Positions 1-42,099 of a DNA stretch of 64,000 nt are shown here, piece after piece. The translations under genes and the position numbers were made by a program. A model generated the notes under the pieces. It searched no databases, was not told the DNA's origin, and saw nothing but the letters and a program-made list of their open reading frames with translations. The stretch is from Bilabrum cf. latius (Eukaryota): positions 1,054,001-1,118,000 of the forward strand of contig OZ237751.1 of the NCBI GenBank assembly GCA_965178125.1, read 5' to 3'. Positions within the stretch are counted from its first letter, which is position 1, and the number at the start of each line of letters is the position of its first letter.

Positions 1-1505
1 GGCTGCTGTTCTTCGAGCTGTGCGTGGCGGCGCACATGAACGACGACAAGAGGGTGAGGGAGCTCCTGGAGGACGGTGCAGATGTCACGCTGTCGGACTA
101 CGACAGCCGCACGGCCCTTCACATCGCGGCCAGCGACGGGCACCTGAGGGTGCTCAACACTCTGATCGAGGCGGGCGGGGACGTGCTGGCCAAGGACCGC
201 TGGGGGAGGACCCCGCTGGAGGACGCGGGGCTCACGGGTCACGCGCACTGCCTGTCTGCCATGCAGGAAGCACTCAGGAGGCAGGGGTACAGGGAGGTGC
301 CCGGGGCTGGAGGCGGGCACGGGCACGGGCACGGGCACGGGCAGGCGGGGCCTGGGCCGGCGTCCACTGCCAGCGAGCATGGGAGCACGGACGGGCGGAG
401 TGGTGGGCGGGGGCCGCCCACTCTGTTGTCTGAGGCATTCGGGGGCAGTCGCAACGGCTCCGAGTCGGACATCGCTCGGCTGGGGCTCGCCCTTGGGGGC
501 GACGGCGGGGACACGACCCCCAAGCCCTCGGCTGTGGGGGGGCCGGGTGCGAACGATGCGGCTGGCTGGGGCTCGGGGGTCTCGGCGGATAGCGGACATC
601 CGTCCAGCAGCCACCTTCACGGGCTTGGGCTGGACGTGCCCAGGCGTCCTTCGGGCGCGATGCTGGCAAGCCTCATGGGAGTGTCTGCCGGGCACAGGCG
701 TGGGCCATCGGGGGCGGGGGCACACAGGGGGCCAATGGCCCGGTCAGCGCTGCACTCGAGCTCCAGCCCGCTGCTGGCGGCGCAAGGGGTCAACCAGGGT
801 GCATCGCACGCAGGTGCGTCCCACATCATGGGTCGCCAGGGCAGCACCGGTTCGGACTTCCAGCTGCCGCCCACCGCGCGTGACGCTGACGCTGGCACCC
901 ACGACACTGACGTGTCCTCCACGGGCCGGTCTCATCAGGACGAGGGCGTGGGGGAGCGGGGCAGCCTGGTGCTGTCTCCGTCCTCCAGAGGCCGGTCCAG
1001 TGCGGAGGGGGACGGGCCATTGAGTGCAGCTGCCATGGGCACTGTGGGGGCCATGGAAGGGGCCGGGGCCAGGTCACTGACCGGGGACACCGTGGCGTTC
1101 GTGTCTCCTGGGGGCGACGTGGTGCACGTGCCTGAGGTGATGCTGGGTGTGGGGGCGCACCAGCATCGGCACGGGCACCTGCAGCACACCCAGCATCAGC
1201 ATCAGGTGCAAGGGCAAGGGCAAGGGACCTCTCGGCGCGCTGGGGGCGGGGCATCGGCGGCTCCCCACAGAGGGGGGGGGGAAGGGCGCACCCCGCCCAT
1301 GGCACCGGCAGGGCGGAAACCATCCCCGCTGCATCCTCAGGACAGCCGCAACGGGGGACAAGGTGGGGCTAGCAACGGAAATGGCAGTGCAGGGGCCGGC
1401 CAGGGAGCGGGACGCTCTGCTCCCAGACCTGTAAGGGTGGGAGAGGCGCTGGCCAGGGCCCTGCAGCCGTACAGAGACCGAGCAGAGGCAGGTGAAGAGT
1501 CGTGA
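1..1505 (+). CDS. 3' part of an ankyrin-repeat protein with a long low-complexity Gly/Ser/His tail (5' end outside window)
   Basis: Frame is open from the window start. Ankyrin motifs DYDSRTALHIAASDGH and KDRWGRTPLEDA. Ends at TGA 1503-1505. This ankyrin style occurs in K+ channels, glutaminases/asparaginases and kinases; the parent protein cannot be assigned. Confidence 0.75.
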   Translation, partial: LLFFELCVAAHMNDDKRVRELLEDGADVTLSDYDSRTALHIAASDGHLRVLNTLIEAGGDVLAKDRWGRTPLEDAGLTGHAHCLSAMQEALRRQGYREVPGAGGGHGHGHGHGQAGPGPASTASEHGSTDGRSGGRGPPTLLSEAFGGSRNGSESDIARLGLALGGDGGDTTPKPSAVGGPGANDAAGWGSGVSADSGHPSSSHLHGLGLDVPRRPSGAMLASLMGVSAGHRRGPSGAGAHRGPMARSALHSSSSPLLAAQGVNQGASHAGASHIMGRQGSTGSDFQLPPTARDADAGTHDTDVSSTGRSHQDEGVGERGSLVLSPSSRGRSSAEGDGPLSAAAMGTVGAMEGAGARSLTGDTVAFVSPGGDVVHVPEVMLGVGAHQHRHGHLQHTQHQHQVQGQGQGTSRRAGGGASAAPHRGGGEGRTPPMAPAGRKPSPLHPQDSRNGGQGGASNGNGSAGAGQGAGRSAPRPVRVGEALARALQPYRDRAEAGEES

Positions 1506-1649
1506 AATGTATTTTAATGCGCAAAACGGTTGTTCTGGCTCTTGTGGGCCTTTGTTTCGGATCCATGATGGGGTCAGAACACTTGCGGAACCTCTATGCG
1601 GATGCGCGGCGCCAATCCATCTCCACGTCTTTCGGATCATATTATCGCA

Positions 1650-2561
1650 ATGAGAGCTGTCGGACGGACTGCAAGGACACTGCAGGTTGCTGTAGCCCGC
1701 TCTGCTGGTCGATTGTCGGTGGCTCCGCTGGGCGTGTAGAGGGCTGGGTACCACGAGAACATCGTGGACCACTACGAAAACCCCAGGAATGTCGGTGAGG
1801 CACGTGCCGCCGTTTCTTCACGCATAGAACCTATCTGGGACACACCCTGCATTGCAAGTATTACTCATAGCTATGTTTCGCAGGTTCACTTGATAAGAAG
1901 GCGAAGACAGTTGGAACTGGCCTCGTAGGGGCACCATCGTGCGGCGATGTCTTGAAGCTGCAAGTGAGGCCGCCAGTTGGCGCTTCATGCCACAATTTTG
2001 CATTACACGCAAGTCGGCTATCGCATACATAAACCCCTATTTATTTCTCATGCCCAGTACTTCTCGTAATCGTTGCACTGCTTCTACTCCTCCGCAGATG
2101 GAAATCGACGACGAGGGCCGAGTTGTTGACGCAAAGTTCAAGACGTTCGGTTGCGGTACCGCTATTGCTTCTAGGTGAGTAGGTACAAAGTATCTCAAGC
2201 AGCAATTCCTGCCGGTGAAGCGACCACTTTGCACACGTTATTGTTGGCAAGCATGCTCACGACTGCAACTGCTTCAGAGTTGACTGCAGAGATGTGAATC
2301 TGAGCGTCGCATCACGTGCACATTTGGCCATTCATTTCATGTCTTGCATTATGCCGCAGCTCTGTCGCAAGCGAGTGGGTGAAGGGCAAGACATTGGACG
2401 AGTGCATGACAATCACGAACAAGGACATCGCCGCTCACCTCAAGCTGCCCCCCGTCAAGCTGCACTGCTCCATGCTGGCAGAGGACGCCATCAAGGCGGC
2501 TGTCAAAGATCTTGAGAGCAAGGGATGGCAGCCAAAGCAGGCCGCCGAGCAGAGGAGCTGA
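1650..2561 (+). CDS. ISCU: Mitochondrial iron-sulfur cluster scaffold protein IscU/Isu1, 4 exons (1650-1794, 1884-1963, 2098-2174, 2360-2561), in-frame TAG at 1737
   Basis: Spliced translation gives YHENIVDHYENPRNVG-SLDK..GTGLVGAPSCGDVLKLQ..AKFKTFGCGTAIASSS..LPPVKLHCSMLAEDAIKAA (three Cys and the LPPVK motif). GT..CGCAG introns are in compatible phases. The Arg/Ala-rich presequence from ATG 1650 contains TAG at 1737-1739. Stop is TGA. Confidence 0.95.
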
Positions 2562-3028
2562 GCGGGCGTCACGGCTGAAGGGGGGCGGGGGGAGGAGGGA
2601 GGGTCTCCGTGGAGCACCTATGTATGCCACAGGCAGGGAGTATGCGGGCTCCGGCGTGCCGAGCAGGTGTTGCTACCCAGCGCACGCCGCGTCACGGTGC
2701 GCTTGGACTTGCTGCTGATGCACCAGCCGTGGATGAGACTGTATGAATGAATAGACCAGCTGCTGCTTTGTAATAACCTGATGAGATAGCTGCCCTAGTG
2801 TAACCCTAGATTTTAAGAGAACACTTCGCAATAAATATGCATGACAGGTAGCGGTCTACCTCACCATCCAAACAAATTCAGCGTAGTACAAAGGTAACGT
2901 GCAAAACAAAATCCTGGCTAAATCATACTTTCGGAAGCCGCTCGTCCACAGCCAGTTGTCCTGATCAATAAGTCTATACCAAATACGATAATTACACCAC
3001 TGTCTTGGTCTTGAGCGCCGTTGGTACC

Positions 3029-6000
3029 ATGGGTTGCGGCGCATCCAAGGCTGCCGTAGAGGTAAGTGGTGGTTTTTTTCCTTCCACCGGTGGTCTTCCG
3101 TTCGGCAATCCGTTTGTCCTAAACCTTCGGCCTGATCCGTGTGTATATTTTACGCTAATATTACGCAGAATGGCATCGGTACACCTGTGCAGAAAACTAG
3201 CACTCAAATATGCCCCATTCCAAGAGACTCGCCAACCCATCAGGATCAGCTGAGTGAAAATGCGGCATCCCGGCCCAATACAACCCCTGATGTCATCGAA
3301 ATGCTGCACGCTTCGATTATTGGAGGCTCAACGAACATTTCAGGTCCGTTTGGTCCGCGTCGTATCGTGTATGTCGACTACACGGCGAGTGGGCGAGCAC
3401 TGGAATGCATCGAAGATGTGATTCATAAACAGGTCCTCCCCCTGTACGCGAATACACACTCGGAGCTTAGCCATAATGGATTACAGGTAAGAATACTCGA
3501 TTACGATGGCCGAAAAGTATAGCAGCTTGATGTAGACGGCAGTACGCGATCGAAAATAATTCGGCGATCACGGGTCGATCAATTTCTTGCATCTCCAATT
3601 CGCAGACAACTGCATTTCGAGAGGAGGCGAGAGACGCTGTACTCCGGTACTTTGGAGGTAGCCCATCGGAGGATGTAGTGCTCTTCGGTGGCTCTGGGTC
3701 CACCGGTGCCATCCTCAAGCTGATAGGAATCCTCCAGATCACGCACGCCGCCGCCGCCGCGCAAGGAGCCAAGCTCGACGCTACTCGCCCTGACTCTCCT
3801 GAATCTGTGTATTCAGTTGATGGGGATGCTGACGACACTCTGGCTGATGCTATGGTGGCGGCCATGAGCACAGGTGAAGTGGAGGTCGGCGGGAGCTTGC
3901 AGCCGGTCGGCGCCAAGGACGAGGAGGAGGATGAGGAGGATGAGGCTGCCGGTGGGGAAGAAGACGGCGGGGGTGGTGGGGAGATGCCGCCGATGCATGG
4001 TCAGGCTGCCAGCGGCGGGCAAGCCGAGGGCGGGGCCCCAACGCCGGTGAGCGCCGGCTCGGGCAAGCGGCCTCGCCTCGCTGCCCTCCAGCTGGCGGGG
4101 GCAGGAAGCACCCGCGGGCTTGGCCTGGCGCAGCGAGCCAGCACGCAGCGGGGCCGGCTGGCAGTAGACCCCTGGCCGTCCACGCGACTCATCGGTCTTC
4201 TCGCAGAGGGTTCATCCGGAGCCGGAAAGGCCCCGGGCTTGTCCGGCGCGATGACCCCGGGCCCTGGGCGGGTGGCGGCGCTGACTGGAGGGAGAGGCGC
4301 GGGGGCTGCCAGTGGGGCGACGGGCTTCCGCTTTGGTACCACGGCCGGGGCTGCGGCGGCGGGAGGGATGCACCGCAATGGGCTGCACAGCGGCCCTCTT
4401 CCAGTAGACGCGGAGCTGGGCAGTTCCCCTACGCTGTTCAACCTGCCGATCGGCCCCCGGTTCTCGCCCTTCAGGCCGTCGAGGGAGGGCTTCGAGCAGT
4501 CCGTGCTGCGGCGCAAGGCCTCCAGGTCTCGACTGAGGCACGCTGCGGGCCGACAGTCCATTGGCCACGGGGGTGGGGGCCTGCACGAAGCCATCGTGGA
4601 AGAGGAGGAGAGCAAGGAGAACGACGGGGGTGCGGGCATCGGACAAACCAAAGCAGCACCCAACAGGCAAGAGCAGGAGCCTAAATGCCTGCCTCCACTT
4701 GTGTTGATCGGTCCGTACGAGCACCACAGCAGCATCCTCCCGTGGCAGGAGGCGGGCGCCGACACCATGCTGCTGCCTGACACCCGCTTCCCCACAGAGG
4801 GCACCTCTGGGTCGAGGCAGTCGGGCCCCGATCTAGAGGTGCTGGAGCGGGTGCTGCGGGCCGCCACCAACGGGGGCCGTCTGCCGCCCTTTGAGCTCGT
4901 GTCGCCCTGCAGCCAGGACCCACTCGTGCCGGTGGGTCCGTTCGGCGACCTGGATGGGCCCGAGGACAAGGGGGAGGCCAAGGCGGCCTCACCGGCAGGC
5001 GGGGAGGCTCGCCGGATGGCCCGCGGGCTGGCACCCACCGAGGCGGACGAACCGCCCGAGGACGTGGACCCGAGCCAGTGGGCCAGGGCGGTGAGGAGGG
5101 GCCAGCGGCCGCTGATCGTGGTGACGTGCTCTGCGCTGGCAAACCTGACGGGCGTGCGCATCGACGTGGAGGCGGTGGCCCGAGTGGCCCACAGGTACGG
5201 TGCCATCGCCGTGGCGGATGCGGCGGCCGCTGCCCCCCACATCCCGATGTTCATGAACAGGACGCACGGGGCGGAGGGCAGAGGCGAGTGCGAGGACGGG
5301 GTGCAGGATCGCCCCAGCTCCCTGGACTTCGGCGACTTCCGCTGCTTCAAGTCGGGAGGCCCCGGCGAGTTCCTGCCCGGGATCGACGGCCCGCGGGCGT
5401 CCAGCCTGGACGCAGTGGTCGTGTCTCCCCACAAGTTCATAGGGGGGCCCAACACCCCCGGGGTGCTGCTCGTCAAACGGGCGCTGCTGTCCAACAGTGT
5501 GCCCTCTTCCCCAGGGGGCGGCACGGTCTTCTTCGTGAAGCCGGACGGGGGACCCCTGTACCACACGGACCCCACGCTGAGGGAGGAGGGGGGCACCCCG
5601 GACATCGTCGGGAGCATTCGGTGCGGGCTCACCATGCGGCTGCACATGGCCGTGGGCAGGGAGCGCATTGCCTCTCTCGAGCAGGAGCGCATGGACATGG
5701 CCATCGCGCGCTTCCAGGCGCACCCGAGGATCCACGTGGTGCCGCTGGAGGCACCCGTGGGCAGCGAGGGAACAGGGCCCCTGCACGTGCCCCGGGCGGG
5801 GATCATCTCCTTCATCGTGTCTGCCTCGGGGCGGGTGCACTGCAGTGACCTGCAGGGGGCGGGAGAGAAGCCCCCCGTGTTTCCCCTGCCCGTGCTCAAG
5901 GGCAGGCTGGCTCTGCACCACGGGCTCGTGCAGAGGGCCATGTCGGACCTGTTCGGGGTGCAGTGCAGGTCAGGGTGCATGTGCGCGGGGCCGTATGCCA

Positions 6001-6692
6001 CGCGCACCCTGGGGATCCACCCACCCTCCATCATGGGCCCCGTGCTGGAGGAGATCCGGGGCGGAGACGAGATGGCCCGCCCGGGCGTGATCCGGCTGTC
6101 GCTGCCCTTCCACATGCCCATGGAGGAGGCCCGCTTCGTGGTGGGGGCCGTGGAGTGGGTAGCCACCCATGCGCGGGCACTGCTGCGCATGTACGCACCC
6201 ACCAGGGCTGGGCTGTGGCTGCTGCGTGAGGGTGCGCGTGCCTTCGACCTGAGGCCAAGGGGGAGCGCGGTGCTGGCTGTAGGGGGGAAGTAGGGGGAGG
6301 AGGAGGAGGAGGACGAGGGAGAGGAAGGGGGGCACGGCGGGAGTGCCCTATTGCGACTGCCCAGCGCTGCAGGCATGCTGAAAGGGGTGAGCGAGGCATC
6401 TGCGGAGGGACCGGGGGCTGTGGGTGACATGGTGCCCGCTGAGTGGGCCCCTCGGGAGCTGCTGGGGGCAGCGGCGGCGGTGAGGGAGCACCTCGTGAGG
6501 AACGAGGCGGGGCGGGAGATGGACTGGGGGGCGTACTTGAGAGGCTGCGTGGATGTTGCGGATCGCATCTCGGGTGCCGTGCTGGAGGGGCGCGCCGAGT
6601 GTTGCGGCGAGGACGAGGACAGCCTGCTGCGGCCGCACGCGACGCAGCGGTTCCGATGGTACGCAGTGGACGGGGAATTGGATGGGCTATGA
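3029..6692 (+). CDS. Aminotransferase class-V PLP-dependent enzyme (cysteine desulfurase/SufS-like), exons 3029-3061, 3169-3486, 3606-6692, in-frame TAG at 6291
   Basis: Motifs YVDYTASGRAL, YANTHSE, GPYEHHSSILPW, VSPHKF (PLP lysine), EEGGTPDIVG and RSGCMCAGPY. N-terminus MGCGASK. ORFs 3678-6293 and 6351-6692 share a frame and are separated only by TAG. Stop is TGA. Confidence 0.85.
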
Positions 6693-6791: not shown

Positions 6792-8070
6792 TCAGTCGCC
6801 AGCGCCACCTGCTGCAGCAGCGACAGGGAGACCTGCTACAATCGCATCGATCTGGCCAGCGTCCCCACCGTTAGCCTTGAGATTGGCCACAAATCTGGTT
6901 TGCCGGTCCTTCGAATCCGTTCCGGTCAGGTCGTACCCGATGCTGCAGAGATCTTTGAGCATCTAGGCGTTGTTCAGGTCAAGGCCTTGAGTGAGCAGCT
7001 GGCACAACTGCACTGGATCTCCCTCCATGTAGGCAATAGCACCGTTTCCTCTCTGCGTAAATGAGTAGCAAGTCGGCCGTGCGCTTCGACAGAGATGATT
7101 CGTGCGAGGGGGCGGATCCTGGTCACATAACACGACGCACCCAGTCAGGCAAGGACAGGTCCGGGCTCGCATCCAGCATCAATGACGCTATCCTGATGGA
7201 AGTGGATGTGCACTTCTTGAGAGCAGCTACAAGTGGTGTCTCCAATTTCTGCGAGACAATGAGCAAATCAGGGGGGTTTTATCGCAGATAATCGCTGATC
7301 CATTTTTTGCCGCAGTCTGCGCCGACCCATGATTTCTTCAAATATGCCTCTCACCCGCGAGTCGCGGATGTTCACGCTTGCCCCGGCCTCAATGAGCTGC
7401 TTAGCCGCCTTATGCAATCCATGCTCGACGGCTATGTGGAGGATCGTGATGCCATCATCGTCGGGATTTTGCCAGTTTAGAACCTCCTTCGGTGCCTCCT
7501 TTATCATTGGCTCATATTCAATCATATCTTTGCGCGGTAGAAGATGGTTACAGAAGCCGTGGTGGCTGAACAGCGCTGCCATGATGGCTCTCGCCTGTTC
7601 CGCGGCAGGGCTGCGACCGAATCGAGCAGCAGGGGCAGAGAACGAGACGAGAGTACCAAATGTTGATACTATGCGGTATGATCTAACAGTGATGTGCCCT
7701 ACCCTACTTCAGAGGCAGCGCCTGCCCCGTGCATGCCCATCACTGCAGCCATTCTCTGCGACGGGAGACAGTGGAGAGAGCCCTTGGTAAGGGTTTTATA
7801 CTCGTGGGGTGTGGCAGCAGCGCCCTGTTTGAGAGCTAAACCAGTTGATCTTATACTTACTTCTTCGTAGTGGATTCGCTTTGACCTTAATTCGCGCTCT
7901 TGCCGCACCCATCTCGCGGCAGCCTCGCGTTCTTCGGCCTCCTTCTTCTCGGCGGCAAGCACTCTCAGCTGGGCTTGGGTTGCGCGACCATAGGACGCAG
8001 CGGCAGTGCCTGGGGTATAGCCATAGTGCTCATCTTCTTCCGAGTCCGTGCGCAGCATGTCGGCGTCCAT
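6792..8070 (-). CDS. Small ankyrin-repeat protein, predicted exons 8070-7861, 7755-7703, 7610-7355, 7248-7141, 7052-6792, in-frame TAG at 6965-6963
   Basis: DDDGITILHIAVEHGLHKAAKQLIEAGASVNIRDSR-KLETPLVAALKK ankyrin repeats joined across GT..CGCAG introns with matching phase. The last exon reads through TAG to tandem TGA TGA. Linkage of the two 5' exons is less certain (one GTAGGG donor). Confidence 0.7.
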
Positions 8071-26900: not shown

Positions 26901-27497
26901 GAGTATACTTCACAGAGTGGTGTGCAGGTGGGCAGTCGATTGAGACCCGGATCATGTCGGTGGTTTGCGGAGGGCTCGTGTAACAGCTCGCAACTTGAAG
27001 GCTTCCCGTCTGGCGCTTTACGCAGTGCTTGGACGAGTTGACAAGTCGCAAGCGTAACAGAGATGACGTCGAAGGGATGAACAAGGAGTCAAAGGTAGAT
27101 ATGTTGGACGGGATGCGAGAAGTGGGAAACAGAGACAGAACGTGGGAGGGTGTGGTGCAGGTCTGGTGTTGTGGTGGGAACTGGAGGGGTTCAGCGATAG
27201 GCATGGTGGAAAGCAAATACTGCTATCGGAAGTATCAATAGTCAGACATAAGTCAAACGCGGTATTTTAGCCGTTATCTAGGTAGAGAGAGCAGCAAGGT
27301 CAAGCTAGAGCAAATTGGTAAGACGGGGTACTAGTAGCGCGTGCTTTCAAAGTTTGAGCATTACCAGATTTCACCCGCCGTCGCGTGCTCGACTCCCCGC
27401 TCCATTTGGTGTTCCGGGACTGCGGCTGTATCCGCAACCCGAGGACTGCATTTTTGATTCCCTTTTCAGTGTGTTTTCAGCTAGCACATTTTACCGG

Positions 27498-30400
27498 ATG
27501 CAGCGCGCACAGGTCGTGCTGTTCGCGGCCGTGGCAGTCTCCGTTGCGGCCTCCGACGTGTTCTATTCTGAGCTCTCGGGGCGCGGCGATGCCCTCAAGC
27601 GGCGCGATGAGGCCATAGCTGGGGCAACTGATGATAAGGCTCTTTTTGTTGAGGGTCGAATCGCCAGCAATGGCAAGCCTACGGTCATGATCGACGATGG
27701 TGAGCAGAACGCGTCGACGAAGTCGCTCAACTGCAACTGAAGGTTATGCGGTCGTTGCGTTGCAGCTTCCCATACAATAATAATCTTATTGGTTGATACT
27801 ACCCTATCATTCTTTGTTCGCAGAAGGAGTGGCCTCGAGCGAGGATCGAACCGGTACGGTCAGCCCAGCAGCGGTGACGGGCGCGGCCCACTCCGCCTCA
27901 GAGGACGCCGTGTACGTTTTTGGGGGCACCTCGGACGCTGCTTCTGGAAGCAAAGTGCTCAAAGATACCTACAAATTCACATACAGTGAGTGCGTGCCTA
28001 CATTGCTGCACATCGATCGGGGTTTGGGGGCGCAGAGGCCGCCACTGGCAGTGACGTCTGCCCGCAGGTCCGCCCACGTACATCCCGCTCCACGCTTTTT
28101 CCAGCCGATTGACTGCCGATCAGCCATGCGCTCGCTGGCACCTCAATCATTCCTACCCATGCATTTAGGATCATTGTGATTTTCGTCTTACTTTGGCACC
28201 CCTCATTCCCTCCCCGCAGGCACCAAGAGCTGGACCAAGATGACCATTGCCACTGACACGCGGGTGGTGGCCCGCACCGGTGCCTCCGCCGCCGTCCTGT
28301 CCGACTGTCGCGCAGAGGGTGACGAGTGCTTGGTGGTATTCGGCGGTCTCACCGGGACCAGCGCCGCCAGCCCGAACACGGACGTCCTCACCACGGGTGA
28401 ATCCACGGTACAGTGGCTCAATCCAGCAGGGGCCAAGGTGGGCGAGAAGCCCCCCGGGCTCATCCACGCCGCCATGGTGCCCGACCCCATGGGCCGGACC
28501 GCCGTCTTGTTCGGCGGCAAGACCTCGGCGGATGACGAGGACGCCACGGACGCCGTCTTCGCCATGAACTCGGCCGGCTGGAAGGACCAGTCGCTGCTTG
28601 CCAACATCGCGAGGGGCAAGTCCGTGTACATGACCAAAGCCAAGCAGCCCACCAACACGGGCCATGCCTTCCACCCGTCGAACGCCGTGGACGGGCGCAC
28701 CGCCAGCAACCGAGATGCGGGGTACTGCGCTCTGGCGGATCGGGTCAACAACCCAACCATCTCGGTGGATCTCGGGGGTGCTCGCACCGTCACGGAACTC
28801 GTCATTTACCCGCGAACGGACTACGCGACCGGGTACGGCAACACGGTCAACGCCCGGTTCGTGGTGAATGATCACCGCACAGACCCTCTCAACAGGGACG
28901 GCAACTGGCACGAGTGCGAGAGCCCCTACTCGAGCGGCAGGCTGCCCGTGCCCTCCCGCATCTCGTGCGGCAGCGTCACTGGGCGCTACGTCCACATGTT
29001 CCGCCGCGCCAACGATATCCAGCTGGACGTGTGCGAGATCCAGGTCATGGCCCCTCATCCCTACACGTGGAAGCAGTTCAACTACGGCGAGGTCGAGGTG
29101 GCAAGGAGCAAACCCACCGTGGGGACGCCCATCGCCCACAGTGGTGTGTGGAGCCGCATCAATGATGGGGGCAAGAACCAGAGGTACAATTCCGGTAAAA
29201 CGTGCACGCACTCTATCAACACCAAGCCTGCGGGCGAGACACACCACTGGATCCGGCTCGATCTGGGCAAGCAGTACCAACTCAACAGGGTGAAGATCTG
29301 GAACCGGTGGGAGGGCGAGGCCCTGGCTCGCCGCCTGCGCAAGACCGAGGTATGGGTGGGCAACGTGGGCGACGACTTCAAGCTCAACACAAAGTGCGCC
29401 CAGCTGCCCGACAACACGGCTACCGTGAATACGTACGAAACGGCCTGTGAGGGAACAGGGCGCTACCTGTGGGTGGCCAAGTCCTGGGCCGATACGGTCG
29501 ACGACAAGGTGCTTACGGTGTGCGAGCTCGAGGTGTACGCCAAGCAGATGCTCAACGTGCCGGCCGCCAGGTCTGGACACGCTATGACGCACCATCGGGG
29601 GGCGGGTTGGATCTTCGGCGGCATCGGCAAGGACGGCAATGCGCTGGGTGACCTGCACGCGCTGGACCTCGCGTCCATGACCTTCAATACGGCGCTTCAG
29701 GTCATCGGGGACCTGCGGCCCTCTGCCCGTGGGTTTGCAGCCCTGGCACCCGCGGGTCTAGAGTCGCTGGTGCTCGTGGGGGGGCGCACAGGAAGCTCGC
29801 TGGCATCGACTCGGGCCGAGAAGGACTACACCATCGCGCTGCCGCAGTGCCAGAGCATCAGCACCACCGGGGTGACCGACAGCGACTGCTACAGGGGCAG
29901 CTGCAAGTACACGTGCAACACGGCAGGCGACTACAGCCCCACCAACATGGCGGGAGGGCCCCCAGTGACGTGTGAGCTGTCTGGGTACTACTCTGGCTCG
30001 CTGCCCGTGTGCTAGGGCAAGGTCCCGACCAAGGTCACTGTCATCAACACCGGGACTGGCGACGTTAGCCGGCTGGTGGACGGCAACAGGAAGGTGCGCG
30101 TGGTGTGGAACACGAACGGCGTGCAGAACGGGTCACCCTCTACCTTCACTGGGTTTTTGGTGCGGTCCTCCTCCATGCACCTGGCAGAGAACTTTGACAC
30201 GATCTCGCAGTTGCCCCCCGGGTGGGAGTGGGACAACCGGCGCAGATCGGCAACCAAGATCACGATCGGCAGGAGCGCCAACGGGGATGGCTATTTGGAT
30301 CTTTCCATGGACGGCCAGGCAAACTGCTGGTGGAGCAACCAGAACTGCCCCCGTCTCCTCATCCCGCATCCCCACGGCATCATCAACCACAACATTCTTG

Positions 30401-33400
30401 ACACACAGAACCGGCACAGGGGCAACTCGTGGACGGCCGAGGTCCGCGTGCGCATGACCACGCTCCAGCCGGGGGCTGCGGCTGCCGGCCTTGGCATCGT
30501 GCAAGATTCCGGGTCGGACGGGAATCGCAACGCAAGGGTGCGTTTCATGTTCATGCTGCGGCGCGATCCGGGCGAGAACCGGCTCAAATGCCATGTGCAG
30601 GAGAACCAGGCCACTAAGGGTGACCGCTTCCTCCAAGGCACGGGGCCTCTCCAGAGGGACGTGTGGCTGCGCATGAAGTACGATGTGATCGGCAATCGAT
30701 TCACTTTCTTCTGCCGCATGAATCACGAGATGACGTGGCAAACGGTCATTTCCAATGGCCTCTTCCCAAATAGCCACGGCGGGGATCTCACCTTTGGCCG
30801 GGTGATCCTGACGGGCAAGAACTGGTCCAACCGGCAGCAGGTGTTCCGCTTCGACAGCTTTTCTCTGACGGTGGACGACTGCCCCTCCTCCGCGATCACA
30901 CGATTTATCCCCGCCGCGGATGCCAGGATCGGCACGACGACCAGGTACTAGGCCGACATCGGGGGCCTGACGGCCGGCGTGTACTACAAGATGCAAGTGG
31001 CTGCTGCCACAGAGGCCGGGCTGGGCGACTGGTCCGACTTCACCTACCGGTATCGTGCATCCCCCAACCTGGCCAGGCCCGCTGGCCTGTTCAACATGGC
31101 TCTGGGCAAGCCCGTGGCTGCATCAAGCTTCCTCAGATCCGGATTCGAGGCCCTGCGCGCCGTCGATGGACAGCGAAACGGGCCACTATTTCACTCGGCG
31201 TACAATGTAAACCCATGGTGGCGGGTGGACCTTGGCTCCCGCAAGCGTGTGTGGGAAGTGGTCATATACCAGCGGACGGACTCTTGCTGCAGGAGCCGCG
31301 GACAGGGTGGGATGGTGTACGTGAGCGACACGCCCAGCTGGTCAGCTGGCACCGCCTGTGAAGGCATCATGAACCCGCATGGCTCCAACCCGGTGGCCCT
31401 CCCATGCAACGCCATCGGCCGGTATGTCTATGTGCGGCTGCAGAAGACTGAGTTCCTGGAGCTGCGGGAGGTCGAAGTCATGGTGGACGAGAAGTGCGAC
31501 ACGAGAACCCCGCTCAACACCAACACAGAAGGCACGTGCACCGGAGCCAGGGACGGCGACTCGTGCACGGCCACGTGCCAGGCTGGCTACGCCAAGTCAT
31601 CGGGGGAGGAAACGGCCGTATGCAGGTTTGGCGAGTGGTCGGTCCCCGAGCCTGTGTGCGTCAAGCAGTGCTCCTCCGTTCCTGCCCCCTTGGGGACCGA
31701 GACGTGCACGCAGACCGTGGCTCGTGAGCAATTCACCAAGCTGGCCTCCGGGGCCGATCCTAACCTAGAGCCCATCCTGCGATTTGCCTCGCTGGACGAG
31801 GACACGTTCCCGCTGAACGAGTACTGGGGCGTTATCGACGGGCGCATGGTGGCGGGGGCTCCGGCCGTGGACGGGTCCATGGGCAAGTGCCTGCTGCCCG
31901 GCCAGGGGATGGTGGCCATGCTGCAGGACCCGGATCCCTCGGCCATCGACGGGTCCGTCAAGATCACAGTCAAGCTGGCGGGCGAGGATGACGCCGGCCT
32001 CGTGTTTGGGGCGGCGGGGCCAAGCACGTACACGTTCGTGTCCTTGGGCTTTGGCACGGGCAAGCACAGGCTGGTGAAACGGATAGGAGGCGTGGACATT
32101 GAGCTGGGCTCCTCCAGGGCATCGGTCCGCGCGCTGGACTCGTCCATCCCCATGGACAAGCACGAGCTGGAGGTGCGCCAGGACGGTGCAAGTCTGCTCG
32201 TACTGCTGGACAACGTGCGCCTGTTTCAGGTGGAGGACAAGGCCGCGCTGGTCGGAGACGTGGGGCTGTGGACGCAGGGCCGTGCCGAGTTTGACGACCT
32301 CGAGGTGCACACTGCGTGTCTGACATCTGGTGGCGCGGCAGTTAGCGGATGCAGGGACTTGTTTTACTAGGACACGTGCGGTTTCACGTGCAGGCAAGGC
32401 TTTGACCTCGTGGGACAAGAGCAAGTCAGCTGCAAAGCCGACGGATCGCTGTCCTCGGCTGCACCAGACTGCTCCATCCGGCCCCCAGTTGCTTTGGACC
32501 AGAACCGCACGGTGGTGGAGGAGTCGGATCGCAACACCGCTGTGGGTGACCCCTTGGTGGCCACGCTGGAAGCCGACGAGCAGATGGAGTTCTCTATCAC
32601 GGGGGGTGATCCGAATGGGGCCTTCAAGGTCGGTCTGTGCGACGGACTGATCCGTGTAAAAGACCCGCAGCTGATCAACTACGAACAGGTACAGGTGTAC
32701 AACCTGGAAGTGACTATCGGAATCAATAGGTACAGAGCCAATACGACTATCGCCGTGCGCGTGGATATCATCGACAGGAACGAGGCACCCTCCATGGACG
32801 CCCAGAGCTTCAACGTCTCGGAGAACTCGGCCTCTGGCACACTCGTGGGTCGGGCCCTTGAGGACCTAGCCGAGGATCCCGAGGATGACGACCTCACGTT
32901 TTCTTTGGATTTCGACGCCTCCAACGGGCTACTGCAGATCGACGCAGCTACGGGGCAGTTGAGCGTAAACCACTCGGCGCCAAGCGGAGCCACCGGTGCA
33001 TCGCACCCATTGGACTATGAGTCGCTGCCCGGGGACGGGTCCTACCTCCTCATCGTTCGAATGGTTGACGTGGCTGACAACCAGGCAAGCGCATTTGTGC
33101 GCGTGTCACTGCTGGACGCCAACGACGCCCCGCAGTTGGACAGAGGCGAGGCAGCCTATGCGTCGCTGCCCCAGCCGCAGATCGCCAGCTTTGACGAGAG
33201 TCGGGCCGATCCAGACGCAGTGACCGCCGGCGCCTTGATTGAGCTTAGCCCCGGTATCGCGGCCAGCGACCAGGACCTCGAGGAGTTTGAGTCTCCATTG
33301 GCATACCGCTTCACGTCCAAGGGGGCGCAGGGGAGCGCCGCGCTCTCTGGGCTGCTCACGAAGCTAGCTACGGCCGGGGGTACCCCTTCCTCTGCTTCCG

Positions 33401-36400
33401 GGCAGACGCTGCAGGGGATCGGAGGCGTGGACCTGTTCGCACTCAACTCCAGCACGGGCGTGATCTCCCTCACGGACGTGCCTAGCAACGACGGATGGTC
33501 CAACTCGGGCGATTTTCAGCCGTACCTTTCGCAGGACGCAGCCCCTCGAGGGCTGCTGGTGCGGGCCGAGTACGTTGTGGAGGTGGAGGTGTCGGATGGA
33601 AACGGTGCCACAGACACGCAGGACGTGCGCATCGTTGTTGGAGCCAACTCGTCCAGCATTCCCATCGTGCGGACGCTCTCGTGCGATGTCAACAACACAG
33701 ACGCCGACCCAGACCTGGACCGCATCAGCGGTGTCGACGGACAGGACGAGACTCTGGGCATGGACGAGTCGTACCCCTATCCCACCCGCGGAGGGGCGCC
33801 CTGCATCATCTCTGGTACTGGACTGGGCAGCAACATCAACGGGCTCCGTGCATGGGGCACCCGCACTGTTGGTGGGCAGGAGCAGGAGGTGGAATTCACT
33901 GGGTGCGTGATGGAAGAGGTCGGCCAGGTGATCCACTGCAACTCGCCGGAGGGATTTGGAGAGGGATTTGTCCTCCACGTGTTTGCGCAGGGACAGCCGG
34001 CGCTCATGGGTTCTCAGCTGCGCTTCGATTTTGCCAAGCCCAGCGTGACCACTGTGAGCGAGAGTGCACAGGCGTTGGCCACGGAGGGAGGGACCGAGGT
34101 AGTCTTCAAGGGCCGTAACTTCGGGCCCGCAGGTGCGGAGCAGGAAGTATCGTATGAAAACCAGAGGGGCCAGAAGTTCCAGTGCGCAGTACTTCCATCC
34201 TCTAGTCTACTCACGGGAGAGACGATCCACGACACGATGCGGTGCGTGGCGGCCGAGGGTGCTGGTGCGGAGCTGCAGTGGACGCTGCAGCTAGGCAACG
34301 AAACTCAGCTGGCGGTCAAGTCGGCGAGCGGGGCGGGAATGGGTGAGGAAGATCCACTGGTCAATAACATGCTGGCGGCCTTCAGCTACACGCCCCCACG
34401 CATCACGTCCCTCGCTCCGCTGGACAGGCGCGAGACGGATCTGCTGGCCCTGGACACCCGCGGTGGAGACACGTTGGTCATTGCGGGTACCAATTTCGGG
34501 CCAGCAACCGAGGCAGCAACAGTGCACCTGTCATACTCTGCATCCAGCGTGGTGCGTGCGATCGCAGGGAGCGGTGTGGGGCAGCTGGGCAGCTACGAGA
34601 CGACTATGGCCAGCTGCTACAAGCCCGAGGGAGGCATGCAGGCGCACAGGCTTCTGCATTGCGTGACCGCTCCAGGTGTGGGTCGCGGGGTGGTGCTGCG
34701 GGCAGAGGTAGCAGGGCAGATGTAGGGCTCTCCAACGTGCTATGACGGCGCCGTGGACGAGGGCGAAGCGTTCATCGACGACCAGGATGTGATGGACCGA
34801 TGCAACAACGGGACAGGCGTTGTTGGCTTCTTGTCTTATGCCCCGCCTACCATCGCGGCAGTCGTGGGGGCGGACGGTTCAGACACGAGGGGCGGGCAGT
34901 CCTTCACCATCCAAGGTACGGGTTTCGGTCCCGAGGAGCTAAGCGTGCAGGGCAGCGTTTCTGGTGTGAGGTATGGGCCTGCGAGTTCCGGCAATCTGCG
35001 GTACGACGCGACTTCAACGTGCCGTGTGACTGTTGCCGACACGGACATCGAGTGCGTGACGCTGCCGGGCACGGGCATGGATCTGGGCTTCTCCGTTGAG
35101 GTGGCCGGGCAGGCCGCATCTACTGGGACGCTTGCCACAGCTCATGCCTACGCACAGCCGGTGCTGGCTACGTTTGATGGCGAAGGGGCGGTTGATGCCG
35201 AGACGCCTGGAGGACAGACCATCGTACTGCGGGGCAACAACTTCGGGCCGATTTCCACTCCTCCCACGCCCATGGACGCCACGTACAACCTCGCAGTGGC
35301 AGGTGCAGGCACCACGACCTTCAATGCGACCGACTGCGTGCTGGTGGATGCGCACGTTACGATCGAGTGCAAGACGGCCGAGGGCGCAGGTAGGGCGCTG
35401 GCGTGGACCGTTGTTGTCGACTCGCAGCCCAGCCGCAGCCCCACGACCAACTATGAGGTGCCTGAGATCCTGGAAGTGCACCGACTGGGGCAGTAGGGTG
35501 AGCGGGTGGCAGATGCAGACGTGGATGGAGGAGAGACCCTAGTTCTCGTGGGCCGCGGGTTCGGGTCGCCTGACCTGCTGCTGATGGACCCAGAGACAGG
35601 CGAGTAGCACCCAGCGCTGCAGTCCGTCACGTATGGCCCATTGTCGGGGCGCGAGTACACGCCCGCGAGCGTGACGCACGTCTCGCACACGGAGATACAC
35701 ATTGTGACGGCCCCCGGCTGGGCGCGGATGGCCTTCTTCAGGGTTGAGGTGGCGGGACAGGCGTCCCCCCCAGGTAGCCCCGATGCCCCCGAGGCCACTT
35801 TCGATTTTGCCACGCCGATTATTGTCAGTATGACGCCTGAATCGACCCAGGACACGTGGAGTCCTCCAAGCACACCTCAGTCGGTAGTGCTGGTTACGCG
35901 GTCGCTGCCCCTGTCGGACCCGCTGTCCAGGCCCGTGGTGAGCTTCGGGGGGCACGTGCTGCGGCCCACGGCGGCCGTGTCCAACACGGACGGCACGCAG
36001 ACGGTCACCTTTGCGTTGCCCGAGCATGGGGGCGGATTTGCGGTCCCTGTGCGTGTGGGTGTTGCACCTATCGCGGGAGGGGACCGTGCGGCACCCGTCG
36101 GTGCTTCGATGTCTCAGCTGCTGGACGGCCCCACTGGGTCCTCGAGCACTACTTTCTTCCAGTATGATGCGCCGGCCGTGGAACGCATCGTAGTGACTAG
36201 GCCGGCGTGGTTGCAACCGGGGTACGTGGCTGGGGCCATGACCCCGATGGACGACAACTGCACGTTCGGCGCTGGCGACCCGTTCACGTGTACCGACCGC
36301 AACGTGAGGCAGGTGGTGATCCTGGGACGGGGTTTCTCCGCCCCGGCCGGGTTTAGGTCCGAAGCGGATCCCCTTGGCCTCCTGCGAGGGGACGCCTCCA

Positions 36401-39400
36401 TGGTACCGCTCAACCGGTTCCCGCTCGTTGTGCGCACGTACTCGCACAACCGGATCCTGGCGTACACCACGGAGCAATCCGGCACGGTGCGGGTGTCGGT
36501 CAGCAACACGTTGCCAGTGGAGCTGCTGGACCCTGGCATGGACGAGGGCCGCGGCATGCAGGCGGACGTGATGGAACAACGCTCCTCGGAGGGCTCCTGG
36601 ACCAACCTGGCGCCCAACATCGCGGGCCTGCAAGGAGCCACGACTGGGCTGCCCACCAGGGGGCAGAGCGCGCAGGATGGTTCCCCGTCCGAGGGTAACG
36701 GCTTGACTGTGACGGTGGATGGACTCGAAACCACCAAGCGGGTGCGCATCCTGGCGGGGGCCTCCGCTGATGAGGCCGTGCCATGCCGCGTGTGGTCGCT
36801 GCTCAACGAGGAGTGGATGGTGCTGGGTGCCACTGATGACGAGCAGTACGATGCGGTTCAGCGAGAGGTGATCGACGTCATCGATGGAAACCTGGCTCAG
36901 GGCGAGCAGGCCGTGTATCAGCTGACATTCTTGGTGCCCGAGGCTCCTGCAACGGCCAGTCGACTGGACGATATGCGCATATTCGTGGACCGGGAGGGTA
37001 CTTTGTCGTCGGGTGACCAGTCGTTTGGATATGCGCAGCCCTACGTGGCAGCCGTGGACGTTTGGCGGCCACCTGCATTCGTGGCGGGGACGAGCTATCC
37101 TACCACTCCCAATGCCCCCGAGGCGCATTGGGCCCGAAGCATGGTGGCAGGAGACTCGGCGATCGTGTCCGTGCCAACGAAAGGCGGCTGGGTGCGGGTA
37201 CGGGGCCAGGATCTCACACTATGCCCGCTGCTACGAGTGGCTGATGGCGCGTTATACACGTGTGATGACGGCATTACCTCCCACGGACATCCGGCGGGAG
37301 CAGTGGCAACCGGGCGCTTGCCCTGCAACTCCGGCGCCCCTGGTCTAACCGCACCGTCGCTGCACGAGTGCTTCATCTCGCCCGTACCGGAGGGAGAGGG
37401 AGACGGCTTGCAGTACAACGACACGTCGACGGGCTTCATGCTGGACGTCGAGGCGGGCAGGCAGTCAATGCTGCTGGCCGAGGACCTTGAAGACGTCGAG
37501 GCCGCCGGTGTCACAGATGGAGCGGGGGGGATCGTGCCCAGGAGGCCTGGCGACGGTCTCACCGCCGTGCGGCTGGCCAATTTGGTCCGTGCCCAGCTTC
37601 ATTACACGCATGATATGCCCACAGTGCGGCAAATCACGCCTGTGCAGGGGCCTGCCGTGCCCACTGCGGGTGGGGTCCGCATGCTTGTGCTGGGCGACAA
37701 CTTCGGCGTCACGTCTCCAGCCCGCGAGCCGCAGATGATGTCGATCCCTGGGTTTATCCAGGTACATGTTGCGGTGCCAAGCAACCGATTTGGGGCACCC
37801 GAGGTGTATGGTCGGCCTTCCGAGTGGGTGCACTGCACGAATGCGACAAGGCTTGACCACGAGCGTATCGAGTGCAACCTGCCCGAGGGTGCGGGTCAGG
37901 GTCTGCCCGTGAGGGTGTTGGCTGCGGGGCTGCAAGGCGAGCAGGACGGGCTGCTGTCCTATGATCCTCCGGTGGTGACTGGGCTTGCCCTGCATGGTTT
38001 CTCGCCTGCTTTCTTGCAGGCGATCAGCGACCCCACCCGCATGCAGCTGCCAAGGACCACCACCACGGCGAGCGAGGCAGACCCAACGGGCCTGCTGCAG
38101 ACGGCTGCAGTGTTCGCCGACCCAACGTTGCAGGTCCAGGTAACCAATGCCTCAGTGCGCTTCTTACTGGGCCCCGTGGTGCTGCATTCGACAGACGACA
38201 CCCAGCTGCAGCTCGGGGGGGTTCCCACGTGGGGCGCGCGGCCGGGGCTCGTGAGAGCCGACCCCTCGCATCCCGCGGCAGCGCACGTCACTCTGTATGG
38301 ACGGAACCTAGGCCGGCGCGGCGCCGTGGGAGACCCTCGCCTCTGTGTGTTTGCCTCATGGATCCACCGTGCCGCCGACTCTGAGCTGAACTGCGATGGG
38401 GTGGAGAGCTTCCCCGGCGAGGGCGAGGTGCCCCAGGCCCGCGTGGTGGTGCACACACACGACCGCATCACGTTTGAGCTGCCCGAAGGTGCGGGCTAGC
38501 GTGACATTGACGTGTCTATTGGCGGGCGACAGCTGGTGCAGGCTGCGCTATCGCAGCCCCGCCTCATGTACGGTGCGCCCCTCATCGGCACAGTCAGTCC
38601 CCTGAGCCCAGCCAGCGGACCGACCACGGGAGGCTACGAGGTGACGCTCAGGGGATCCAACTTTGGCCCCAAGCAGCGCAACACCTCCATCCCTCGATTG
38701 GCTCTGGATGTACAGGGCGCCGTCCTTGTGCCACCACTGCCACTTGCCGAAGCCCCAGGCATGCCCACCGAGTACCTGGTGTTGTCTTTCTACCGCAGCT
38801 GCATCACGGATGCGCGGTCCCCGGAGGGCATCCGTCCGTAGACCGGCAGAACCGCTGGCTGCAAGTACGAGCTGGTAGATCGCGACCACGATTTCGTGAC
38901 TTTCCGAGTGCCTGAAGGCATCGGAGCGTCCCGGGATGTGGCCGTGGAGGTGATGGACGCCGCTGTTGCCATGGGCACCGTTCCCCAGGGCCAGGAAGAG
39001 GGGTACTACGGATACACGGGTATGCAGCGGGCGGAGAGTCCAGGCGCTTTCTCGTACGATACACCTACTGTAGATCGCACGGATCCTGCGCGCGTGTACA
39101 TGGGTGCCCAAGGGCTTCTGGAGGACTACAGAGGGGCGCTGCAGGCGGCTCGTGCTCGCATGCTGGAGCTTGGCGCTGAGGAGGACGAAGCACGCGTGGG
39201 CGACGTCAGCGATGCCATCAGGCTGGAAGCACAGTCTCCGTTGCGGCAATTCATCAACAGCGGGGCCTTGGCTTGGGGAGACGAGCTGGAGGCGCTGCGT
39301 GCTGCTCGTCAGCCCACGGATCCTCCGATCGAGGGGCCTTCCAAGAAGGTCTTCCTCTTCGGTCGCAACTACGGCAACCCCGCGCTGGCGGTGGAGCAGG

Positions 39401-42099
39401 AGTGGACGGAGGAGGAGCTCAGAGTTGCAGTGGCAGTGGGCGGCATCGACTGCATGACCGCTCAAAGAGGCCGCAGTGCCGTCACGGATGATCCGAGCGA
39501 GGACCCGGCGTCCACGCAGGTGGAGTGCGAGATCGAGGCGCTCACAGTGGGGTACAAGAACGTGACGCTTGACATTGCGGGGCAGCAGGGGCAGCTTGCG
39601 GCAAGGACGGGGACTAGTGGCGTGCACTTTGTGTGCGCTCCAGGGTCTTTCGGAACGGACGGCAGGTTCTGCCTCCCGTGCCCCGTGGGTGCAGACTGCA
39701 GCGGCTACGATACCGACCTGCGCGAGTCCACGGTGCCCCGGCCGCAGACGGGCTTCTTCAACCTCAACTCGTCTGACCCCGTATCCGGTGACATGACCGA
39801 CGCCGAGTGCCCCGAGAGGAGGCAAGTGCCCACCAGGGACGTGTGCGTGGTGGCGTGCGAGCCGCAGTGGGCATGCACCGGCGACAACTTCTGCGCCATC
39901 GGGTATGCCAGCAAGGCGCCCATGTACAGGTGTAGCAGCTGCGCAGATGGCTTCTACCGGCGAGCGACGGAGTGCGTTAAATGCCCTGACAACCCATGGA
40001 TCCTAATTGTGGCCTTCGCTGTGCTGGCCGTGGGCGCATGTGGCTTCGGGTTCTGGCTGAACCAGTCCAAGATCAACATCGCACTGATTGCCATCGGCGT
40101 GGACTACTTCCAGGTGCTCGCCATCTTTGCTAACGCTCGAGTGCAGTGGCCCCCGTTGCTCAAAGACATGTTCCACATCCTGTCCGCCTTCAACCTCAAC
40201 CTCGAGATCACGGCCCCCGAGTGTACGGTGCCCGACTTGCAGTACATGACCAAGTGGTTCTTCATAATCCTCCTGCCCGTTGCCGCCATGGTTATGGTAC
40301 TGCTCACGTACCTGCTTGGCATGGTGTACGTGTGCGCCAAGAGCGGCAGGTGCAAGCAGCCCAAGGACAAGACCAAGGACGAGCTGGCTCCGCTGGTGGC
40401 GGGCGCCATCGTGCTGAGCCTGTTTCTGTACCTAGTCACCACGCGGTCTATCCTGGACGTGTTCAACTGCATTCCCACCAGTCCCCCCGATGGCCAGCTG
40501 TACATGCAGGCCGTGTTTGAGCCTTGCGGGCAGAAGGGTGGCGTGCAGCAAACCCTACTGCCTTTCGCAATCATTGCGCTGGGCGTGTACACGATCGGGT
40601 TCCCCACGTGGGTGGGCTTCATGCTGGTAACGAGCCGCAAGACGATGCTGCTGGACCAGCTGATGCGTGCCATCGGCAAGGGTAACGACATCAATATCGA
40701 TTGGCCCAAGGACGTGCAGGATGCGTGCCAGTTCAGGCAGCGGTACCAACGTCTGTACTACTACTTCAAGCCCGAGTACTACTGGTGGATCGTGACCATC
40801 CTGGCGCGCAAGGCCCTGATTGCCTTCTGCTCGCTCTTCTTCAACACCAACGCGTCCTTCTAGATGGCCGCCGTTAACATGGTGCTGTTCTTGTGTTACA
40901 CGGCCCAGGTGCGCTTCAACCCGTACATGCCGCCCGCCGACTACGCCGAGGTCATCACTGGCTGGGCCCAGAGCGCGCTGGACTCAAGCGCAAAGGACGC
41001 GCGCACCCCAAGCCGTTTGGCGGTCAAGGACATCGAGCAGGCCGCCAGAACCAGGAGCGACCAGGCCGGGGCGGCAACCTCGAGCGCAGCCGGGTCGGTG
41101 ATCCGAGACTCTGCCGGCCGGGCCGTGACCTCACGAGACGTGCACGGCGAGCTGTGGTTCAAGATCCGGGAGGTGATCACCTCGTTGGACAGGAGGGACC
41201 AGCGAAGATTCGGTACCACGATGGACAGCGCCACGACGGGCGGGAGACAAGCAAAGCAGACGGCCATTGGCGGGCTGGGCACAAGCATCGGGGTACTGGG
41301 CAACTCGCTGATGAACTGGAACACAGTTGAGACGCTTCTGCTCTTCTGCGCCATCATGGTGACGCTGGGTGGCATCATGCTCGAGTCAGGTAGGCTGGAT
41401 CAGGAGGGCGCCGAGGGCCAGCGGGACGCTCTGACTATCCTGCTGATGCTGGTAATCATGGTGTCCATCGTGTACTACTTCACTGTGCTCTTCACCGAGG
41501 TGTACGTGCTAGTGACGGACGCCCAGGACCGCAAGGCAGCGCAGATCCAGAAGGCGGCCAAGCTAAGGAAGAAGGGCGTGGCGGGCGGTGCTTCTGCACC
41601 CAGCGCTTCCGGCGTCATGGAGGAGGTCGAGATCGATACGTCTGGCATGCAGCACCAGAGCAACCCGGCCTTTGCCTCTCAGAAGGGCAGAGAGTCCGAG
41701 GCGGGGAGCCAGGCTATGGCGGGGCAGATCAAGGAGATCACAGGGCTGGAGAACATGGACAAGGAGACGTGGACACGGCTGCGGCCCCAGCTGGAGGATT
41801 TCGCCGGCAGGTTCGGCGAGATGAAGGAAGAGATTGACGCCCTCAAGAAGGACCTCTCCAGGGCCCACGCCAGTGGTGGCAGCGGTGGAGTGGGAAGTCG
41901 CAGAGGGACGCTCACCGGGGTTGCTGGTGGGATGAGTGGCAGCGGCATGGCGGCCAATCCCATGCAGGCTTTGAGCGGCGGGTCACGGAGGTCATTTGGG
42001 CCTCGTGGCACAGGGGGTGGCATGGGAGGGAGGAGAGCGAGCAAGGGGCTGCTGGCGGCTTAGCGAAGGGCCTCCCTGAAAGGGATCGGGAAGGAATGA
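27498..42099 (+). CDS. Giant (~4,747 aa) cell-surface receptor/adhesion protein, copy 2. Exons 27498-27699, 27824-27985, 28220-42099
   Basis: Paralog of 9618-24221. Single frame interrupted only by TAG at 30013, 30949, 32368, 34723, 35494, 35605, 38497, 38839, 40861 and 42061. Ends at TGA 42097-42099, the position homologous to the copy 1 stop. Confidence 0.92.

Follow-up and report, generated by a model that had tools for sequence, protein, structure and literature searches.

UAG as a probable glutamine codon, with UAA and UGA as stops, in the GC-rich nuclear genome of a Cafeteria-like flagellate

In nuclear genomes UAA and UAG almost always change their meaning jointly, and only few exceptions have been described (PMC11687900). 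One of the closest to the present case is the fornicate Iotanema spirale, in which UAG encodes glutamine and UAA is a stop; a tRNA with a CUA anticodon and changes in the N domain of the release factor eRF1 are predicted in the sections of that paper available to us (PMC5304391). The same code (NCBI table 15, UAG as Gln, UAA and UGA as stops, no context dependence) is described in the accessible part of another study for the ciliates Hartmannula sinica, Trochilia petrani and Protocruzia tuzeti (PMC11687900). Here we analyse a 64,000-nucleotide stretch (hereafter the window, contig OZ237751.1, G000:C17:1054001-1118000 in our numbering) near the end of a contig of 1,128,589 nucleotides, together with the 48.6-Mb, 111-contig eukaryotic assembly to which it belongs. 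The nuclear code of this organism almost certainly reads UAG as glutamine and retains both UAA and UGA as stops, and would thus be of the table-15 type.

Several features set this genome apart from the known cases. Iotanema is unrelated, its dominant stop is UAA instead of UGA, and its eRF1 carries T32G, whereas the GTS motif is intact here. Its suppressor tRNA was unfound in the text available, and section 9 of the paper expected a derivative of tRNA-Gln(CUG) (PMC5304391); here a tRNA(CUA) was found, and it resembles tRNA-Tyr. Suppressor tRNAs are also given as undetected in H. sinica and T. petrani, and the phyllopharyngean genomes have 27-54% GC, with UAA ending 87-98% of the genes in the recoded ones, as compared with about 60% GC and about 12% UAA here (PMC11687900). 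UAA and UAG are decoupled as well in the rhizarian exLh and the TARA ciliates (both with UAG as Leu) and in Scotinosphaera (UAG as Ser) (PMC11687900), and in Oligohymenophorea PL0344 (UAA as Lys, UAG as Glu; PMC10553269), yet the amino acids differ. The TARA suppressors, described as derived from tRNA-Leu, keep their amino-acid identity, unlike the change from Tyr to Gln that we propose below. Table 6, used by many ciliates, hexamitids, ulvophytes and Amoeboaphelidium, has UAG as Gln and a tRNA(CUA) in common with this genome, but reads UAA as Gln too (PMC11687900).

The meaning of TAG can be read from two giant paralogous genes in the window (A and B), whose products are 97.6% identical in amino acids, with 275 synonymous and 104 non-synonymous codon differences. 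Their open frames (+10299-24221 and +28180-42099; 4641 and 4640 codons) each contain ten TAG, no TAA, and 20 and 23 CAA, respectively. In the alignment, these TAG fall on 14 distinct sites, at which TAG faces TAG six times and CAG eight times (four in each direction) and no other codon; swaps between TAG and TAC or TAT do not occur. The rest of the genome agrees. The switch-II glutamine codon of small GTPases, readable in 21 of 30 loci, is CAG in nine, TAG in eight and CAA in four, and 29 TAG in paralog alignments face TAG (14), Gln (13), Glu (1) and Met (1), but never Tyr. Reading through TAG increases the number of frames of at least 500 codons in 645 kb from 100 to 211, reading through TAA only to 110. 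TAG accounts for 10.7% of the Gln codons, is present in 85 of 90 long coding frames and is commoner at lower GC content of third codon positions (GC3). Four histones and three HSP90-family domains, with 80 Gln codons between them, contain none, which suggests that TAG may be avoided in highly expressed genes.

The eRF1 gene itself has two in-frame TAG, one of them at a column with Gln in 81 of 84 homologs. In contigs from two probable RNA runs, all three predicted eRF1 introns are joined and both TAGs are kept, with the TAG exon unvaried; therefore, TAG codons survive splicing. The RNA status of the three runs (X1-X3) is a guess, X1 is probably mixed with DNA, and these contigs give no transcript ends, leaving the 3' end of the eRF1 mRNA unused.

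TAA stands directly after the last residue of histone H4, one histone H3, H2A, four small GTPases with Cys motifs and eRF1. The C-termini of histones and small GTPases are conserved, and for eRF1 the conservation was seen in its homologs. The paralogs of the TAA-ended H3 stop at the identical residue with TGA. Likewise, the eRF1 of a metagenomic relative (L158, 92% identity) stops at the corresponding residue, but with TGA, and one CAG of this genome is a TAG there. In a self-trained coding model of 824 kb, the coding score falls after 17 of 18 TAA, 74 of 89 TGA and only 22 of 207 TAG (TAA versus TAG, P = 6e-14; TAA versus TGA, P = 0.3), the stop counts coming from the model and not from curated genes, and the 18 TAA including repeated histone copies. 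Among 113 modelled gene ends, 99 are TGA and 14 TAA. These models show TAA as a real but minor stop, predicted to end about one in eight genes (about 12% of the modelled ones), with UGA ending most.

Inside conserved domains, TAA behaves unlike TAG. A hand count over 269 Pfam matches genome-wide (65 Ras, 133 kinase and 71 kinesin) gave 183 TAG, three TAA and seven TGA. Each of the three TAA falls in an intron or where the match borders one, leaving no exonic TAA, and six of the seven TGA, on inspection, are intronic, at a splice donor or at a match edge. The initial annotation of the window had seen TAA neither as sense nor as stop. This holds within the window, but not genome-wide, where TAA ends genes: the comparison that it had proposed, between conserved C-termini and domain interiors, finds TAA at the former (histones, GTPases, eRF1) and in no exon of the 269 domain matches.

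The candidate decoder of UAG is a single-copy tRNA(CUA) gene (G000:C23:907607-907679, minus strand; 69.8 bits with Rfam, in a search that scored 63 of 780 tRNA candidates), accompanied by two tRNA-Gln(CUG) and one tRNA-Gln(UUG) from pattern searches. Among 41 CTA pattern matches (one repeat copy unfetched) it is the only nuclear CUA tRNA: Rfam confirmed none of 20 CTA candidates scanned, nine more were judged by ARAGORN only, and the calls of ARAGORN at relaxed thresholds were spurious, with other anticodons. Elsewhere in the genome are a nuclear tRNA-Ile whose anticodon is GAT and a tentative call of an intron-split tRNA-Val(GAC) (L009 and L030). Anticodons with G34 in the Ile and Val boxes are unusual for eukaryotes.

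The tRNA(CUA) is nearest to tRNA-Tyr(GUA), to which it is identical at 12 of the 14 bases of the acceptor stem and 8 of the 10 of the anticodon stem (20/24). Over the same stems it agrees with Gln(CUG) at 12/24 and with Gln(UUG) at 6/24, and with 18 non-Tyr tRNAs at 7.4 on average (standard deviation 1.9), unlike a Tetrahymena-type suppressor, whose body would be closest to the organism's own tRNA-Gln. In common with tRNA-Gln(UUG) are the D-stem (8/8), the T-loop and G73. The eukaryal Tyr determinants listed in Table 1 of PMC9976931 include C1:G72, A73 and G34, and only C1:G72 is kept. From the alignments we infer that this tRNA is charged with Gln. It probably arose from tRNA-Tyr by one anticodon change and was then captured by glutaminyl-tRNA synthetase (GlnRS), a mosaic produced by gene conversion being the alternative origin. 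The stems and C1:G72 could also mean that UAG is ambiguous, or Tyr, through this Tyr-like tRNA, with Gln contributed by the near-cognate tRNA-Gln(CUG). We consider this improbable, given that none of the 29 TAG faces Tyr, that no TAG is exchanged with TAC or TAT, that TAG supplies the switch-II Gln of eight GTPases, and that the Tyr determinants A73 and G34 are missing. The A73G case of tRNA-Tyr su3 is reportedly among the Gln-inserting amber suppressors. In such laboratory mutants of Escherichia coli, GlnRS takes up CUA tRNAs from other families through U35 and G73, as far as described in the part consulted of PMC9976931. Since Table 1 of that paper gives the eukaryal Gln determinants as uncharacterised, the bacterial parallel is a lead only.

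One eRF1 locus and one pelota locus were found. The eRF1 motifs are intact (GTS, E55, NIKS, S70 and the YxCxxxF frame, in human numbering), and changes at sites otherwise conserved among 84 homologs are G29A (G in 84/84) and N30D beside GTS, S60V (S in 81/84) within TASNIKS, F117P, and N129S and K130H in YxCxxxF. L69 is replaced by a Gln, which is itself TAG-coded; position 69 and the GTS loop are tied to the reading of a third-position G in the sections seen of PMC5304391. A long stem branch leads to this clade (0.47 in a 22-row IQ-TREE eRF1 tree). That any single one of these changes is causal is conceivable, but somewhat doubtful.

These observations can be combined into a possible mechanism. 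The CUA anticodon would pair with UAG and not with UAA, and UAG would have been captured alone. The eRF1 N domain, with G29A, N30D, S60V, F117P, N129S, K130H and L69Q, may have drifted into a form that is weak at UAG and still stops at UAA and UGA. The suppressor would most likely have come from tRNA-Tyr(GUA) via G34C, and A73G together with a Gln-type D-stem would have passed it to GlnRS.

Some points weigh against the proposed code and its mechanism. About 1 Mb of the 48.6 Mb was read directly, and the code was assigned from sequence. The tRNA pattern searches miss atypical T-loops and edited anticodons. The retained C1:G72 is a eukaryal Tyr determinant, and L69Q is non-diagnostic, as it is present in four of the 84 homologs, one of them an eRF1 in the PDB. 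Finally, a TAA lies in mid-frame at G000:C2:428541 (L274:2042), in a single-copy orphan open reading frame (ORF) of 533 codons with hydrophobic segments, and the sequence is coding-like on both sides. This ORF has no homologs among proteins of near length or shorter, and matches no Pfam family. A nonsense allele or an assembly error would be the simplest account of its TAA; readthrough is another.

Readthrough would point to a split code that leaks or depends on context, in the style of Condylostoma or Blastocrithidia, in which UAA is occasionally read through or UAG stops near 3' ends. The mid-frame TAA would fit such a code, as would some TAA stops closely trailed by TGA and the coding score falling slightly more often after TAG (22/207) than after CAG (139/1987, P = 0.07). 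We regard this code as very improbable. The drop after TAG equals that after CAA (24/263, P = 0.64) and GAA (P = 0.90), and the single TAA looks as expected from a nonsense allele or an assembly error. Nor does TAG become rarer over the final 20 codons of the modelled genes, where it makes up 13 of 94 Gln codons, against 5-11 in earlier bins (a modest sample). As a terminal codon, TAG was seen neither among the histone and GTPase C-termini read nor at the two HSP90 ends seen. TAG does not double as a terminator, and shows no context dependence.

Under an ordinary table 6, TAA would also mean Gln, with high GC3 keeping it out of sight, and genes would end in TGA only. The window cannot decide this, as the initial annotation had rightly stated. 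Its terminators at 1503, 2559, 6690, 24219 and 42097 (+) and 6794 (-) are indeed all TGA, the 14 TAG positions of the giant genes, without TAA and in the presence of CAA, were recovered, and, again as reported, TGA closes the element frames at 43028-45064 (+), 53702-55180 (-) and 61475-62941 (-); none of these frames contains a TAA. When TAG is scaled by the CAA/CAG ratio, only 1.2 TAA are expected per giant gene (probability of none, P0 = 0.30), or 1.9 when the 14 positions are used (P0 = 0.14). The absence of TAA in the window is thus compatible with chance, and it is the remainder of the genome that supplies the signal. We infer that TAA is scarce in the window only because a GC-rich genome favours UGA.

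Besides the window terminators, the 99 TGA among 113 modelled gene ends and the one mid-ORF TAA would suit table 6. In contrast, the same table would add non-conserved tails to H4, H3, H2A, the four prenylation-motif GTPases and eRF1, and lengthen the 14 TAA-ended modelled genes by 10-149 residues. It also predicts about 16-27 internal TAA, where one was seen (P about 1e-6). An internal control is provided by AT-rich integrated elements, in whose Pfam stretches (997 codons, GC3 0.24-0.38) A-ending codons exceed G-ending codons 2.4- to 5-fold. Here Gln is written as TAG 25 times, CAA 21 times and CAG four times, and TAA is absent against 60-131 expected; off-frame TAA triplets are common in the same stretches, and three of ten element ORFs end in TAA. 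The lack of TAA where A-ending codons dominate excludes suppression by high GC3. Of the two options that the initial annotation had left open, a Gln codon masked by GC3 is therefore refuted, and the rare split code with TAA as stop is supported by the invariant C-termini, by the TGA-like behaviour of TAA in coding potential and by its absence from AT-rich coding sequence. The in-frame TAA aligned to Gln that would point to table 6 was not encountered in the 269 Pfam matches. A tRNA-Gln(UUA), which the initial annotation had suggested as a check, is not among the 25 TTA pattern matches (21 fetched, three identical repeats of fetched ones and one mitochondrial), nor is any other tRNA(UUA); one of these matches proved to be tRNA-Pro(AGG). 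Table 6 is hardly credible for this genome. An artefact (pseudogene stops, assembly errors, mRNA editing or a contaminant, the last suggested by a second, different 18S on the 17.9-kb contig C95) has a negligible chance of being the explanation, with TAG spread over dozens of large contigs inside conserved domains and over nearly all long coding frames, kept in the spliced contigs of the two probable RNA runs and in two independent metagenomic relatives, and with synonymous changes prevailing between the giant paralogs.

The AT-rich elements (G000:C12:912-920 kb, L314 and L315; C22:750-755 kb, L316; 28 matches genome-wide) carry genes for a protein-primed DNA polymerase, a virophage-type (Sputnik/V20-type) capsid and GIY-YIG. 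The Pfam model PF21738 found no capsid in them, while other Pfam models did. GC-rich reverse-transcriptase elements adjoin the virophage-type elements, and the capsid frame continues into GC-rich sequence. Searches of viral contigs with the element polymerase and capsid returned no relatives, and gave no sequence link to free viruses. Code 15 is among the codes of giant viruses, and the matching of codes between host and virus is discussed in the portion available of PMC13524828. The recoded virophages could point to a recoded giant-virus partner, a lead only.

The features of the window are listed in the Table. The assembly has GT-AG introns and TTAGGG arrays. We take the product of the Fe-S scaffold gene to be IscU-like, a name given by eye from the translation, and the small gene on the minus strand is presumably ankyrin-like, also from a reading by eye. 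No tRNA was found in the window by ARAGORN. The giant genes lie in a tandem duplication of 16.4 kb at 96% identity (9315-25689 versus 27183-43555), which adjoins telomeric arrays. Gene A encodes F5/8 type C, kelch, sushi, cadherin and TIG domains followed by hydrophobic segments, and the product of the duplicated unit is a surface protein of about 4700 residues that also has a cysteine-rich region and a multi-pass C-terminus. The TTAGGG arrays, of 11-94 units each, alternate with subtelomeric repeats and with copies of an ORF whose product is acidic and rich in lysine. They could represent telomere-targeted elements or an assembly artefact.

Table. Features of the 64,000-nucleotide window (window coordinates)
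Feature	Coordinates	Strand	Evidence and codons
Ankyrin-repeat gene, 3' exon	3..1505	+	Pfam Ank_4, E 1.9e-12; TGA 1503-1505; no in-frame TAG or TAA
Fe-S scaffold gene, GT-AG introns	1566..2561	+	TGA stop 2559-2561 verified; start approximate
Class-V aminotransferase gene, last exon	3660..6692	+	PF00266, E 3.4e-22; one in-frame TAG at 6291; TGA 6690-6692
Small gene with intron	6792..7500	-	TGA 6794-6792; 5' end approximate
Giant gene A, main exon, ~4626 codons	10341..24221	+	TAG at 12132, 13071, 14814, 14925, 17727, 19140, 20619, 20961, 22266, 22983; 0 TAA; ends TGA 24219
Giant gene B, paralog of A	28222..42099	+	TAG at 30013, 30949, 32368, 34723, 35494, 35605, 38497, 38839, 40861, 42061; 0 TAA; ends TGA 42097
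Repeated element ORF	43568..45064	+	No Pfam match; in-frame TAG at 44042; TGA end
Subtelomeric repeated ORF	53702..55180	-	Second copy 61475-62941 (-); in-frame TAG; TGA end
Twelve (TTAGGG)n arrays among subtelomeric repeats	46214..62927	+	TAG/TAA-rich "frames" here are noncoding

The best named match of eRF1 is Cafeteria roenbergensis (69%); a search of the ESM Atlas returned family names only. In single-gene eRF1 trees of 47, 102 and 22 rows, the organism groups with Cafeteria and Bicosoecida sp. CB-2014 in FastTree (Shimodaira-Hasegawa support 100), and with Cafeteria at moderate support (80/77) in IQ-TREE. A placement among the bicosoecids, at the level of the order, is likely from this gene. 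The mitochondrial genome (G000:C111; L002, L004, L012) has 21-28% GC, a tRNA with a TCA anticodon, in-frame TGA and TAA stops, and is of the table-4 type. Mitochondrial UGA as Trp has been reported for Cafeteria and Cafileria, and C. roenbergensis also has integrated virophages (10.1101/751586, in the part seen); both traits fit the proposed placement. That same part speaks of a non-standard code in C. roenbergensis for the mitochondrion alone, and the eRF1 of this species shows a canonical N domain in our 84-homolog alignment. The main 18S, in the array on G000:C12 (L036), is short (1700 nt) and has a divergent 5' end. The second 18S (G000:C95:6099-7900, L035) we take to be haptophyte-like, and probably derived from food or a co-cultured alga.

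Among 80 metagenomic eRF1 loci, exonic TAG was found in two within this part of the tree, L158 and L200. L200 (a contig of 1310 nt) has two TAG, one of them opposite a Q in L194, and a TGA stop, and its N domain is heavily altered, including the NIKS and YxCxxxF regions. Its partner in the tree is L194 (95/94), which has a canonical eRF1 that ends with TAA and contains no TAG among 18 Gln codons. The sister position of L200 to a canonical lineage hints at a second origin of UAG as Gln, and L200 is possibly an independent reassignment, as judged from one gene. Two further loci with both TAG and TAA in frame (L214 and L218) sit on long branches that fall outside the clade; they were excluded as belonging to another organism, probably a table-6 ciliate. 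P0009, an eRF1 labelled Symbiodinium sp. KB8, falls in the bicosoecid-like clade with P0005, P0008 and P0126, which suggests that its record holds a contaminant. P0005 and P0008 have Q69 and S129 in common with the organism studied here.

In the literature searched, from which subscription journals and supplements were outside, no nuclear reassignment in a stramenopile was found in the parts consulted, including those of PMC11412368, PMC6723347, PMC13768787 and 10.1101/751586. A code change in this lineage has probably gone unreported so far. New here are the lineage, the GC-rich and UGA-dominant setting, a tRNA with an apparent Tyr origin, and recoded endogenous virophages. Taken jointly, and quite tentatively, the results may describe the first stramenopile nuclear change from stop to sense, in which a tRNA-Tyr became an amber suppressor and then acquired Gln identity. 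Within the Cafeteria-like flagellates, UAG as Gln would then have at least two origins, one in the clade studied here and one in the L200 lineage, the virophages would have adopted the code, and the flagellates would be candidate hosts of giant viruses with TAG as Gln.

The proposed code would be an independent case of a split code in a major eukaryotic group, GC-rich and UGA-preferring, unlike the known cases dominated by UAA. It comes with a chromosome-scale assembly containing both the tRNA and an eRF1 that must read UAA and UGA, yet yield at UAG. This makes two questions testable: how eRF1 discriminates between A and G at the third position, and whether a suppressor can change its amino acid in addition to its anticodon. 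Gene callers using the standard code cut such proteins short, as seen for P0123 and P0020, which stop at a TAG. With UAA ending only about 12% of its genes, this lineage may face a lower barrier than the ciliates to moving on to table 6 later.

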